Source: a virus (Duplodnaviria; Caudoviricetes). Taken from it: a stretch of DNA of 64,000 bases. Position 1 is the stretch's first letter. Every line of letters begins with the position of its first letter. Below the pieces are notes generated by a model that was given only the letters and a program-made list of their open reading frames with translations, was not told the origin of the DNA and did no database searches. The translations under genes and the position numbers were made by a program. The DNA lies in IMG/VR virus record IMGVR_UViG_3300025316_001101; one strand, given 5' to 3'. Of the stretch, positions 176 through 43,738 are shown piece after piece.

Positions 176-270
176 TACGCCCAGTAGGAATTGCACCTAC
201 GACCCTCGGTTTAGATTATGGGGCTGACTTGCCCCTAAGACCGATGCTCTATCTCCTGAGCTATGGGCGC
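176..270 (-). tRNA. tRNA-Arg(UCU)-like gene interrupted by a 22-nt hairpin in the anticodon loop
   Basis: GCGCCCA/TGGGCGT acceptor, GCTC-AGGAGATA-GAGC D arm, TCGGT/ACCGA anticodon stem, GTAGG-TGCAATT-CCTAC T arm; loop is 29 nt; removing 22 nt restores CTTCTAA. Confidence 0.8.
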
Positions 271-284
271 ATTAATAAAACTCA

Positions 285-845
285 TCAACTGATACGCAAT
301 CTTTTATTCAATTTATCGATTAACCGGCATGTATAAACATCTACTTTAGATTTTATCGAATTGATATCCCACATGTTTTCATGCAATTCTATATGACATG
401 TATGACAAAGCAAAATACATTTTTTTAATTCAGTGATAATTTCTGACCATTTTTTATAATGTATGTTTGTCATTTCAAACATTTTCGTTTCGCAATCTAT
501 GTGATGAAAACACATCCCCTTATCACATCTATTGTAACCACACTTAATACACTTGCCACCTTTAATAGAAACACATTTTGCTTTCAAAGCGTATCTACGT
601 CTTTTAGTATGACAAGAATTACATATCTTACTGGTTCCTCCGTGCCGCCTTTTATAGGTAAATTGCCTTCCGCAAATATCACATTCACAACCAAGTTCCT
701 TGTGTGGAATTTCTAATTTTTTTGTATTATGCGTTTTGAATGGAGAACATTCAAAACAATATTTTCGTCTTTGCAGATTACGTTCTTTACCATCAATCTT
801 CATCCTAAATGGAAATCGATCTCCACATTTTTTGCATATTGGCAT
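285..845 (-). CDS. HNH homing endonuclease with N-terminal Zn-finger motifs
   Basis: CxxC motifs, C-terminal CIKCGY...FHHID...CILLCHTCH; GGAG SD. Confidence 0.85.
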   Translation of the reverse strand: MPICKKCGDRFPFRMKIDGKERNLQRRKYCFECSPFKTHNTKKLEIPHKELGCECDICGRQFTYKRRHGGTSKICNSCHTKRRRYALKAKCVSIKGGKCIKCGYNRCDKGMCFHHIDCETKMFEMTNIHYKKWSEIITELKKCILLCHTCHIELHENMWDINSIKSKVDVYTCRLIDKLNKRLRIS

Positions 846-908
846 ACAACTCCTTAGCGTAGATGTTAGTACATACTCTACATATGCATCTACGCTATAT
901 TTTACTAA

Positions 909-982
909 TAGGCTCGGCAGGACTCGGACCTGCGACCCCCAAATTATGAGTTTGACGCTCTAACCAACTGAGCTACGAGCCC
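909..982 (-). tRNA. tRNA with CAU anticodon (Met or Ile2)
   Basis: Cloverleaf GGGCTCG...TCAAA-CTCATAA-TTTGG...CGAGCCT-A. Confidence 0.9.
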
Positions 983-1038
983 GTAACTTCTCACACCAGC
1001 ATACCAAAAAATTAATCTCAAGTCAACTCTTTTAGAAT

Positions 1039-2052
1039 ATGCTAGTTCATACAATCAGTCACGACCATCCCGCTATCATTGGCGGGGTATGTGTTCACGC
1101 ATGTAACTTCTTTAATGCTCTAGAAAAACTCATGCCTTTGGTGCGAACCAAATTCGTTCCTGGTATGCGTTTTGAGCTTACCGCTCAAAACGCCGATGTA
1201 CACATTAATCTAACGCTAAAAGACTATTGGGATCTTCTCAACAATCCACAATTCAAAGGCAAGAAAATTGCCTATCCTGTATTTGAATGGACGAACACTG
1301 AAAATTTTCCTAAATTATTCGAACAACACGATCAATTGTGGGTGCCATCGCAATGGCAAAAAGACAATATTATTAAAAGCGGATATGATGCTAATAAAGT
1401 TAAAGTCATTCCTGAAGGGGTAGACCCGACCGTATTTAATCCACAGATTAAACCTAATCGAGAAGTGACCAAAGTCAACAAGTTTAAGTTTTTGTGTGTT
1501 GCCCGATTAGACGTTAGAAAAAGCTTAGACACTCTTCTTGAAGCATTCATAGAAGAATTTACATATCAGCCAAATGTCATGTTAATGTTAGCTCCTATAA
1601 CGCCCAACACTAAAATCATTTCACACCCTCAAATTGCACATATCAACACAGTGGTACATCACGAACAACTTAATAGTTTGTATACGGCCTGTGACGCATT
1701 TGTATTACCGTCTAAAGCCGAAGGCTGGGGACTTCCCATCTGTGAAGCAATGGCGTGTGGACTTCCTACCATTACTACGAATTATAGTGCCATGACTGAA
1801 TTCTGTAATGAAGACACCACCTATTTTGTCAATCATGAGCTAAAAGAAATGCCAGATGATTGGAATGGATTAAAAAATCCTGGTATGTGGGCAATAGCAG
1901 ATAAGGCTCATCTCAAACATCTCATGCGACATATTTATGAAAATCGTGAGGAGGCCAAAGAAAAAGGACTAAAGGCGTCTAAGCACATTCTTGAAAATTT
2001 CACTTGGGGTATGGCTGCTCAAAAGGCAAAGCAAGCCTTAGATGCGATTTGA
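1039..2052 (+). CDS. GT-B glycosyltransferase (GT4 / Glycos_transf_1-like)
   Basis: FVLPSKAEGWGLPICEAMACGLP motif. Confidence 0.9.
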   Translation: MLVHTISHDHPAIIGGVCVHACNFFNALEKLMPLVRTKFVPGMRFELTAQNADVHINLTLKDYWDLLNNPQFKGKKIAYPVFEWTNTENFPKLFEQHDQLWVPSQWQKDNIIKSGYDANKVKVIPEGVDPTVFNPQIKPNREVTKVNKFKFLCVARLDVRKSLDTLLEAFIEEFTYQPNVMLMLAPITPNTKIISHPQIAHINTVVHHEQLNSLYTACDAFVLPSKAEGWGLPICEAMACGLPTITTNYSAMTEFCNEDTTYFVNHELKEMPDDWNGLKNPGMWAIADKAHLKHLMRHIYENREEAKEKGLKASKHILENFTWGMAAQKAKQALDAI

Positions 2053-2292
2053 CCAAATCCTAATATTGTAATACCAATAAGTCCCATCCTTATATTGATT
2101 GGCATCCCAATCCATTTCGATATCACCCTCGAATTCAGAAAACTGTGGATTCTGAGTGAAGAACTCGTCCCACAAATCAATAATAGCCGTATCAGATACA
2201 AAAGCGGCCCCTTGAGTCCAAGTTTCTAGCCATTCCTGCAACTGCTTCACCGCACCGTCTATCGTATAGTTGTCTATCCAGTAATTCTTCAT
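2038..2292 (-). CDS. hypothetical protein
   Basis: ATG ORF, acidic/aromatic phage-like composition. Confidence 0.6.
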   Translation of the reverse strand: MKNYWIDNYTIDGAVKQLQEWLETWTQGAAFVSDTAIIDLWDEFFTQNPQFSEFEGDIEMDWDANQYKDGTYWYYNIRIWSNRI

Positions 2293-42236: not shown

Positions 42237-43005
42237 TCCTTATATGAGGCGACATTTCCAAACGCTTACCAATATCCCAACCAACCTTACCTCTCCGATG
42301 TGCCTTTTCAACATATTTCTTGTCGCCAGTTTCATCAAATTTTGCACGATCTCTATTTAAGACATCGGCTGTGATTACATCTGGATCGTTTTCCAATAAA
42401 CACATGCAACAACAAAGCTTAATACAATCTCTTTGCACATCCTCTGGTATCACCACGCCTATATTAGCTGTTGGTGCCATAGGAAGATCACTAATTTCCT
42501 CTTCTAGCGATTTGCCCTTCCTGCATGAGAATGTACGATATGTATAAACTCGCTGACCAAGGCCGCTATCTACCATTCTGACTTCTTCACCGATATCGAT
42601 CCAAATAGACACACCAGATACTTTTTCTGACCTTATTTCGTCTATCTTCGCCATCATAATCCCTTGAACTTCGAATTTTTCTCCTTCAAATTCAAACTTC
42701 AATGGATTGTTTTCTACTGGCAATCTCAGAAATAATTCTGGAATGGGCGGCTGCATAAAACTAGCATCAACAGCTAGATTTAATTTCAATAATGGCGGTA
42801 CGATAGCTGGCCAAATACTGTAATATGGCTGATGTGCATTATACCAATTGGCCTCCATTCCCAATTGGGTATAAACTTCATTGTGCCGTCCGCTATATCC
42901 CGTCATCAATTTGCAATAAAAATCAAACGGCTTCAATGCATGAGCATCATGATCGCCCACGTTACGGTAGAATTGATAGATTGTTTGATATTCATGAAAT
43001 TGCAT
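42082..43005 (-). CDS. hypothetical protein
   Basis: 307-aa ORF. Confidence 0.7.
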   Translation of the reverse strand: MQFHEYQTIYQFYRNVGDHDAHALKPFDFYCKLMTGYSGRHNEVYTQLGMEANWYNAHQPYYSIWPAIVPPLLKLNLAVDASFMQPPIPELFLRLPVENNPLKFEFEGEKFEVQGIMMAKIDEIRSEKVSGVSIWIDIGEEVRMVDSGLGQRVYTYRTFSCRKGKSLEEEISDLPMAPTANIGVVIPEDVQRDCIKLCCCMCLLENDPDVITADVLNRDRAKFDETGDKKYVEKAHRRGKVGWDIGKRLEMSPHIRIAHTALYWTGPGRTVPRILFRKGSIIHRKVIETVPTGYMESPNEDTRNPGS

Positions 43006-43286
43006 TACCGCACCGTGTCATGGTCAATCCACTTTTTATCGATCCACAATTTTCTTTCTTTGTATGGCTGTTGAACAAGCACATGAACTTCATTTTCATT
43101 AAAGTCTAAAATTTCACAATCAATAGATTGTTTGCTACGACGATGAGCACCCGTAAATGCAGTTGCATTAATTTTAACTGTCTTGCCTTTTTCTAAATCC
43201 ATAAATTCTCCAAAAGTAAACACATAGCCCGTTTGGTGGGACTCGAACCCACGACATGCGACTTTAGAGATCGCCGCTCTAACCAA
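43005..43286 (-). CDS. hypothetical protein (real start MDLEKGK downstream of tRNA)
   Basis: GGAG SD before ATG. Confidence 0.55.
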   Translation of the reverse strand: MVRAAISKVACRGFESHQTGYVFTFGEFMDLEKGKTVKINATAFTGAHRRSKQSIDCEILDFNENEVHVLVQQPYKERKLWIDKKWIDHDTVR

Positions 43287-43301
43287 CTGAGCTACAAACG
43301 G
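43228..43301 (-). tRNA. second amber suppressor tRNA (CUA)
   Basis: CCGTTTG/CAAACGG-G; GCGAT-CTCTAAA-GTCGC. Confidence 0.9.
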
Positions 43302-43317
43302 TCATACGACCATTGTA

Positions 43318-43644
43318 CTACCGCTTAGGAGGTTTGTAAAGCGACCCCCGTTCGACCATCCTACGCTTGCGTTTCTTGGGAACTATTTTTTTGGCATCTC
43401 TCACTCTTTGTCTTGCCCGCTTCTGACAAGCATTTTGAGCCGGAAGGAACTCCCTGTGTTTACTGACAATATCCCAACAAGTCCGACCATCTTCTGTTTC
43501 GGTCAGTTCGCAGGCAACATATTTTGGAATAATAGCCACCCCTTGAAAATGAGATCGCCAAGTCACTCTGTATTTGCCCGTTTGATCAAGCCAATTCTTC
43601 TCCGTCAAAGTGTCGGTCGCCAATGTCCAAGTTAATGTAATCAT
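43318..43644 (-). CDS. hypothetical protein, basic C-terminus
   Basis: AAGGA SD. Confidence 0.6.
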   Translation of the reverse strand: MITLTWTLATDTLTEKNWLDQTGKYRVTWRSHFQGVAIIPKYVACELTETEDGRTCWDIVSKHREFLPAQNACQKRARQRVRDAKKIVPKKRKRRMVERGSLYKPPKR

Positions 43645-43659
43645 TTTATTTCCTTTCAG

Positions 43660-43738
43660 TGGCCAAGACAGGAATCGAACCTGTATACTCTAAGTTTGTC
43701 GCAATGGCTTACTATGAACAAAGCTCACGCTTTGGACC
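43660..43738 (-). ncRNA. aberrant tRNA-like element
   Basis: Perfect ACAGG-TTCGATT-CCTGT T arm, TTGGCC-A 3' end, bulged acceptor, mini D hairpin, no canonical anticodon loop. Confidence 0.4.

Follow-up and report, generated by a model that had tools for sequence, protein, structure and literature searches.

Y RNAs combine a handle that binds the protein Ro60 with a remainder that gates the Ro60 ring or tethers a partner, which is PNPase in Deinococcus, Salmonella and phiLo in vitro (PMC4201824, PMC12135203). In the Thermus phage phiLo, the phage Ro60 and its Y-like RNAs (Yrl1/2) assemble with the PNPase of the host (PMC12135203). We analyzed a stretch of 64,000 nucleotides (nt), hereafter the window, from a Caudoviricetes virus (IMG/VR virus record IMGVR_UViG_3300025316_001101). 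Within this 259-kb record, which represents ~50% of the genome according to CheckV, the window corresponds to positions 163025-227024 on the reverse strand; record positions are marked G000, and all others are window positions. Two RNAs of the window, named E1 and E2, combine a Y-RNA-type handle with segments resembling 23S rRNA, which we call the cargo. From sequence comparisons, we lean toward the view that E1 and E2 act as Y-RNA-type Ro60 particles, which would display rRNA imitations to host proteins. Y RNAs are already known, as are Ro60 and tRNA sets of phages, and the new element is a Y-type handle with an rRNA domain as its cargo. Neither an rRNA-mimic phage RNA nor a Y RNA with rRNA cargo is described in Rfam 15 or in the literature searched.

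The cargo of E2 corresponds to the GTPase-associated centre of 23S rRNA (helices H42-H44, E. coli positions 1051-1108), the domain that binds uL11 and thiostrepton. E2 occupies 19912-20212 on the minus strand, where it was recognized by its sequence, its fold, a motif search and a partial match to the handle model R1 described below; its handle runs UUUCGGCUCGAAUGCGAGUGGGACUACAU ... CAUCCUUGUCGGGCCGAAA. The cargo at 19963-20106 (minus strand) is a 144-nt module of the H42 closing strands, H43 and H44, supported by Infernal, blastn and 26 phage relatives. It matches positions 1085-1152 of the Rfam large-subunit rRNA model with 36.1 bits (E 2.4e-7, Infernal), is 90% identical to E. coli 23S 1039-1088 by blastn, and contains the strand CACUGGUCGA, which equals 23S 1102-1111. 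E2 retains H43 and H44 in the order and sense of rRNA, along with the junction, the A1067 and A1095 loops (the GUAACA loop and its flanks) and the H42 strands. The copy differs from the ribosomal domain in being extra-ribosomal, in carrying an insert of 82-88 nt between the junction and H44, and in its position inside a Y-RNA handle. Positions 1072/(1092-1099), which we take to be the tertiary base triple of the GTPase-associated centre, are changed jointly in E2, with U1072 accompanying U1092-A1099. Among the relatives of the E2 cargo, C1072 is paired with C-G in all 15 distinct sequences that have it, and U1072 (n=3) occurs twice with U-A and once with U-G. This joint change at 1072 and the pair 1092-1099 argues for retention of the rRNA tertiary fold in the mimics. 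Judged by its sequence, the E2 cargo reproduces the 23S GTPase-associated centre faithfully. The RNA begins one base past tRNA-Ala(UGC). Its closing stem has 9-10 bp. A small hairpin caps the upper stem, and the cargo follows 3' of this stem, before the CCUUGUC strand.

E1 (9764-9996, minus strand) carries a 167-170-nt cargo of rearranged 23S H69-H71 segments within its handle, as judged from model R1, the 23S segments and a 7-mer test. It includes an exact 14-mer of 23S 1921-1934 and pieces of 8-13 nt from 1900-1984 in scrambled order. The cargo has 19 7-mers in common with 23S 1895-1990, all in the sense direction and none in antisense, compared with 1.0 on average and at most 10 for shuffled sequences and 9 for the next-best 23S window. 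The E1 handle consists of a 12-bp closing stem (11-12 bp), a GAAUG loop and a GGGAC/GUCUC upper stem, and its 3' end is formed by the stem and UUUUUAUU. A promoter-like site (TTGCAA, 16 nt, TG-TATATT) is located just 5' of E1 at 10002-10029 on the minus strand, and the 3' end is terminator-like. E1 and E2 are the sole rRNA-like stretches within the 259-kb record, and they bear out the two noncoding RNAs with 23S modules that a preliminary description of this DNA had proposed, E2 through the Infernal match and E1 through the 7-mers. A candidate copy of the sarcin-ricin loop was rejected; the single match, at 46813-46826, has 2 mismatches where 2.3 such matches are expected by chance, and it lies in coding-like sequence.

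The cargos could also be accidents. If the elements of the region were unconnected, the locus would be an ordinary tRNA island with decayed tRNA genes, and E1 and E2 would be inert rRNA fragments left by recombination. We regard this explanation as very unlikely. The coordinated three-position change that keeps the E2 base triple and the retention of both functional loops argue against it, as do the promoter-like site and terminator-like end of E1 and the precise framing of both RNAs by an intact handle. The tRNA look-alikes B and D of the window are also poorly explained as decayed genes, since both are intact, closely matching cloverleaves whose GNRA cap looks designed. The scrambled E1 cargo would fit such an origin, as would the homing endonucleases and two insertion sequence (IS) copies that make the region recombinogenic and the lack of E1 or E2 relatives in the searches described below. 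One IS copy, an IS200/IS605-type element with a small RHH open reading frame (ORF) and TnpB by Pfam (18213-19911, minus strand), abuts the 3' end of E2. The second copy at 47208-48882 has 74.8% DNA identity and 80% protein identity to the first. The first copy is polymorphic, since one lake-metagenome contig (run X2) joins 18212 directly to 19907. TnpB was considered as a partner of E2 and rejected because the element simply abuts E2, has a second copy and is missing in the run X2 contig. The element beside E2 is an incidental insertion.

E1 and E2 have the handle in common. A 5' stem strand is followed by CGAAUG-N5-GGGACUACAU, and on the 3' side CUUGUCGG(G)CCGA precedes the complementary stem strand. 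The handle loop CGAAUG.../...CCUUGUCG is conserved in both RNAs, as in Ro60-binding Y RNAs. A motif search found 12 handles in the 259-kb record, all on one strand: E1, E2, nine at G000 129032-130058 and one at 161950. The nine-copy array spans 1.1 kb and is located directly 3' of the phage Ro60 gene. This gene is an ORF of 569 aa (G000 127091-128800) with Pfam matches to vWA_Ro60 (64 bits) and TROVE (28 bits), both above the cut-off. Residues 22-531 align to the solved Ro60 proteins 9nen, 1yvp, 2nvo and 9kop, a set that covers human type, Xenopus, Deinococcus and the Thermus phage phiLo. The gene and the array together (G000 127091-130058) would correspond to window positions 96967-99934, which places them 33-36 kb past the window end.

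The array is composed of five or six minimal copies of 60-106 nt and three or four copies permuted in tRNA-shaped bodies. Four permuted copies occur in the whole record; each consists of a tRNA-shaped body with normal acceptor ends into which a capped handle is inserted. The tRNA-shaped sister copies lie at G000 128960-129685 and 161893-162007, and the anticodon arm is GNRA-capped in two of them. Each of the six short copies has its own letters in the closing stem, where both partners of 10 pairs have changed, and the upper stem (GGUC/GACU or GGGAC/GUCUC) is also conserved among copies. A covariance model built from these six copies, R1, matches E1 from end to end (34.5 bits; E 5e-7 in 346 kb of sequence), with the cargo accommodated as an insertion of 167 nt where the upper stem is capped. 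We also searched eight related loci on contigs of up to 459 kb, whose Ro60 is 42-55% identical to the phage Ro60. R1 detected 16 handle RNAs there, on the Ro60 strand and within a few kb of the gene, at seven of the eight loci, and no handle in 232 kb around 26 Ro60-less control loci. On the Ro60-encoding phage contig of 407 kb (L039), the interval 7595-7687 has a handle motif and, immediately behind it, a tRNA-shaped gene whose anticodon loop has 6 nt, which suggests similar tRNA-mimic Y RNAs in this relative.

Comparison with the Y RNA families (YrlA, YrlB, Yrn1; RF02553, RF02565) supports the assignment of the handle. In both, the ends pair in a long stem, an internal loop carries a CGAA-type motif, several copies lie beside Ro60, and a modular handle is combined with an effector, some copies being tRNA-like. 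The conserved 5' motif of Y RNAs that is implicated in binding of Rsr is GNCGAAN0-1G (PMC4201824). It appears as GCCGAAUG in E1 and as CUCGAAUG, without the first G, in E2. The conserved letters of the Rfam YrlA consensus (CgaAUGC..GgaaCUAc ... AcUuGucG) equal those of the handle. The letters of human Y1 RNA are also very similar to those of the handle. Unlike YrlA, which is defined by a tRNA-like module, E1 and E2 have an rRNA-like module and lie 78-88 kb from Ro60. The phage also differs in having 12 copies where one to four are usual, four of them permuted, and in scores below the Rfam threshold. In the Rfam scan, no family other than tRNA reached its threshold, and the matches to YrlA and YrlB remained below it. 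The higher YrlA matches, 38.8 and 30.2 bits, rest on tRNA-like parts. The best of them in the record, at G000 162253-162385 just past the window end (38.8 bits, below threshold), may be a YrlA-like tRNA-mimic module.

The handle was also compared with 23S at 9764-9790 and 9965-9996 in E1 and at 19912-19930 and 20184-20212 in E2. The handle strands CCUUGUCGG and CGAAUG are the letters that flank H71 (E. coli 23S 1941-1973 compared). In the permuted copies, CCUUGUCGG and CGAAUG stand around a hairpin in the 23S order, and the additional cargo of E1 comes from the same 23S region. This resemblance of the handle to the H71 flanks may be accidental (rough p ~0.01-0.02) or may point to imitation of an rRNA site by the handle.

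The rRNA domain of E2 also occurs in other phages in a free-standing form. A 21-base H43 pattern matched 27 IMG/VR loci, one of which is a true 23S; the other 26 resemble 23S at ~1045-1109 alone. These viral mimics share H43, the junction, the H44 hairpin and a variable insert of 13-251 nt at the position of the E2 insert, and they are frequently found beside tRNA genes. The large insert is lacking in three of the loci (L109, L120 and L123). They resemble E2 in core letters, in the place of the insert and in the frequent tRNA neighbours. They differ in their own closing helix, which varies and covaries from phage to phage, and in having neither Ro60 nor the handle, whereas E2 lies inside the handle and keeps more extended 23S-like flanks. 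The corresponding E1-type pattern matched only true 23S in IMG/VR. No phage uL11 gene was found in the 259-kb record or in four complete mimic-bearing phages, and the partner of the mimic would therefore be a host protein. GTPase-centre mimics and expanded handle arrays are not described in Rfam 15 or in the literature searched.

We propose that the handle of E1 and E2 docks on the phage Ro60 and that the cargo would remain exposed. The E2 cargo, folding as the GTPase-associated centre, would bind the partners of that domain, in the first place host uL11 and uL10. Those proteins would be held on Ro60, or the particle would be brought to them, possibly with an exonuclease by analogy with Ro60/Y-RNA/PNPase. 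E1 would follow the same scheme with factors that recognize the H69-H71 region. The analysis establishes the handle, its covariation, its association with Ro60 genes and the fidelity of the E2 cargo, whereas the binding of E1 and E2 to Ro60, their protein partners and any benefit to the phage are inferred. The presence of the handle on E1 and E2, together with a phage Ro60 that has an array of such RNAs, makes the Ro60 particle a better-supported frame than free decoys.

Several observations weigh against the Ro60-particle proposal. Known Y RNAs adjoin Ro60, whereas the distance to the Ro60 gene is 88 kb for E1 and 78 kb for E2. E2 matches R1 only partially (9.6 bits), because its cargo sits elsewhere in the handle. 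No handle copy reaches the gathering score of Rfam YrlA RF02553 (69 bits), and the best true handle scores 25.4 bits. The E1 cargo is scrambled relative to 23S, and its GUAAGUU segment is predicted in a different hairpin; from this predicted fold, the cargo may not be a three-dimensional 23S mimic. A BLAST comparison with 8 records of phages that encode Ro60 yielded no relative of E1 or of E2, nor was one found in IMG/VR, so that the two chimeras have no comparative support of their own. Among the 26 records with free-standing mimics, including 7 that are at least 90% complete, none has the Ro60 vWA domain, and none has the Y-type handle.

The last of these points leads to an explanation in which E2 works independently of Ro60. 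It would bind host uL11/uL10, or a factor that docks there, as a sponge or as a regulator, and the handle would serve only for processing or for stable ends. The module occurs widely in phages that lack both Ro60 and the handle, its own closing helix covaries across phages, and the distance of E1 and E2 from the Ro60 gene would also agree with such a role. Against it, E1 and E2 keep all conserved handle letters and not a stem alone; these letters are otherwise found only beside Ro60 genes. We consider Ro60-independent action of E2 unlikely.

The preliminary description had joined these RNAs with the surrounding genes into a single counter-defence kit. In that scheme the tRNAs, look-alikes, RNA ligase, PTH2 and macro-domain protein act together, and the mimics are free decoys for tRNA or rRNA nucleases or modifying toxins. 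The structural imitation of both tRNA and rRNA near a large tRNA set and a ligase is upheld, whereas joint inheritance of the parts is not. The co-occurrence check was run on the 26 other mimic records: the PF09414 ligase accompanies the mimic in 10, at least four tRNAs occur in 17, Ro60 is found in none, and two essentially complete phages have the mimic and no tRNA. The preliminary description had itself counted such uncorrelated occurrence among the outcomes against its hypothesis. Our results do not support the integrated kit as an evolutionary unit, but they do support a narrower integration of one protein, Ro60, with a dozen RNAs that share the handle and imitate tRNA and rRNA. As an explanation of E1 and E2, the decoy kit appears improbable to us. 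Phage tRNAs do counter tRNA-cleaving defences, partly through changes in the loop (PMC10264068, PMC11555353), and the window has some tRNAs with unusual loop positions and an RNA ligase 1.4 kb from an array of look-alikes. The decoy explanation would nevertheless leave the Ro60 handle unexplained, and decoying of anticodon nucleases is impossible for look-alikes that lack an anticodon loop. None of the results obtained here favours decoying of toxins. The 23S H70 and the sarcin-ricin loop are toxin targets, which would favour rRNA decoys, but we know of no bacterial toxin against the GTPase-associated centre. The enzymes that the kit needs are also incomplete, as described below for end healing, RtcB and PTH2.

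The phage is a huge freshwater phage, and the window is its tRNA island. The DNA is present in freshwater and lake metagenomes of six studies, and no RNA data set was listed among the public runs that contain it. The island covers 175-43778 on the minus strand and has 33-35 tRNA-shaped genes, ~28 of them apparently decoding, according to ARAGORN, Rfam RF00005 and the anticodon loops. ARAGORN reports 30 tRNA genes, and 33 are at or above the RF00005 gathering score (29 bits), all on the minus strand and interspersed with ORFs; a 34th tRNA-like gene is at 27046-27117 (29.2 bits). The whole 259-kb record has 50 tRNAs. The ~28 replacement tRNAs proposed earlier agree with the count of genes that have a canonical anticodon loop (7 nt, U33, purine 37), and these are chiefly for Ala, Val, Gly, Pro, Glu, Thr and Arg codons. 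The altered loop positions proposed with them were also found, each in one tRNA: C33 (16759-16831), G33 (24096-24172), U37 (28195-28268) and G32 (11000-11071). The normal tRNAs would supplement or replace the host tRNA pool. This large decoding set is real but ordinary for a large phage. The canonical tRNAs include two genes for tRNA(CUA), of the amber-suppressor type, at 16289-16362 and 43227-43301 (minus strand), one of which has a C1:G72 acceptor end, as in Pro tRNAs. Stop-codon recoding was considered in view of these two genes and rejected, because TAG readthrough extends ORFs in the window no more than TGA or TAA readthrough does.

The window also encodes tRNA-shaped RNAs without a usable anticodon loop. 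Four of them form a tandem array at 38534-38913 on the minus strand, as back-to-back cloverleaves: D (38839-38913), C (38763-38835), B (38689-38763) and A (38534-38687). C1:G72 is present in all four. B and D are near-identical, with intact cloverleaves in which the anticodon arm is a 7-bp stem with a GCAA cap; C has the loop AAAACCU, which lacks U33, and A has an 85-nt insert. Array A-D does not carry the Ro60-type handle. Three more minus-strand genes belong to this class. At 16932-17026, a 29-nt insert replaces the anticodon loop, as an intron or in a non-decoder (Rfam 56.8 bits, sequence and fold); at 43660-43778, a 119-nt gene has a long insert in the anticodon arm (Rfam 32.4 bits); and at 27045-27118, a weak tRNA-like gene has G33 (Rfam 29.2 bits and loop). 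These amount to 7 clear cases, so that the non-decoding tRNA-shaped RNAs of the preliminary description exist, although not in the number of ~12 given there. In a comparison of 439 tRNA-like genes from 1.47 Mb of phage loci, GNRA-capped arms were confined to this phage. Their presence in the bodies of the permuted sister copies marks the anticodon-less cloverleaf as a recurring block of the Y-type RNAs of this phage.

The RNA ligase expected near the mimic array was located. It is a 237-aa protein comprising the nucleotidyltransferase domain alone (40346-41059, minus strand; Pfam PF09414 89.6 bits, PHROG RNA ligase), encoded 1.4 kb upstream of array A-D and without a sequence match in PDB. The many tRNAs, some with odd loops, and an RNA ligase in the region recall T4-type tRNA repair by Pnk and Rnl1. 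The phage ligase differs in being a PF09414 protein of 237 aa and not Rnl1, and no kinase-phosphatase adjoins it. No end-healing kinase was found near the ligase; P-loop kinase matches occur just at G000 22853-23227 and 256047-256406, far outside the window, and RtcB was not found in the record. The macro-domain protein (207 aa, 45903-46526, minus strand; Pfam PF01661 40.2 bits, phrog_2613) is present as proposed but not close to the array, being 7 kb away and beyond the range 176-43738 that had been assigned to the kit. The PTH2-like protein was misplaced. Its single copy (G000 228853-229233, 100.9 bits) lies 1.8 kb past window position 1, outside the window and 40 kb from array A-D. Proteins of 180, 331 and 307 aa near the array had no Pfam or PHROG match. 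The tRNA look-alikes, the ligase and the macro-domain protein are neighbours of E1 and E2, not demonstrated partners.

An attenuator sensing the tRNA pool had also been proposed. The candidate precedes tRNA-Arg(GCG) at 28514-28837 on the minus strand and consists of a promoter, a GC-rich ORF of 37 codons (28727-28614), hairpins and a terminator-like stem. The promoter has an 11/12 match, and GGAG stands 7 nt 5' of the ORF start. These parts were confirmed, whereas the case for codon sensing is weak. In codons 6-35 of the leader ORF, 24 of 30 are exact cognates of downstream tRNAs, compared with a fraction of 0.32 in phage genes. Letter shuffles gave a mean of 16.2 (P 0.001), shuffles of codon positions gave P 0.035, and the other frames gave 19 and 15. 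Composition explains most of the match: the G+C content of the ORF is 63%, and the codons read by the tRNA set are rich in GC. It is possible but unproven that the leader at 28514-28837 is a tRNA-sensing attenuator.

The remaining genes of the window are short and nearly all on the minus strand. Their Pfam content is typical of large phages: two sigma-70-like factors, endonuclease VII, HNH endonucleases, glycosyltransferases, NUDIX and metallophosphoesterase proteins, PAS, MscL and Clp_N proteins, and two IS200/IS605 TnpB genes. A 344-aa ORF at 14632-15666 with an exostosin-type glycosyltransferase domain (residues 184-308) overlaps tRNA-Gly(UCC) at 15470-15541, and its start is probably downstream of this tRNA. 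The nearest phage records have just short, tRNA-sized stretches in common with this DNA. A 75-nt segment at 17239-17313 is 94.7% identical to an unannotated stretch of Agrobacterium phage Atu_ph07 (303237-303310); it is within short ORFs and looks coding, with a CxxC motif.

The idea of a single co-inherited counter-defence kit is thus corrected, as its parts occur independently across phages. Two phage RNA families are connected by E1 and E2, the free-standing GTPase-centre mimics and the expanded arrays of Ro60 handles. A broader extension, which we put forward tentatively, is that interchangeable handles on the phage Ro60 show tRNA bodies, the GTPase-associated centre (E2) and the H69-H71 region (E1), and that the handle itself may imitate an rRNA site. 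If so, the particles would differ in the host protein that they target, each a component of the ribosome or tRNA world that would be captured or delivered to an exonuclease, and E2 would be the first Y RNA with an rRNA domain as its effector module. The known bacterial Y-RNA modules bind PNPase or resemble tRNA. The combination of a handle with a near-perfect uL11-binding rRNA domain offers a module whose protein partner is predictable.

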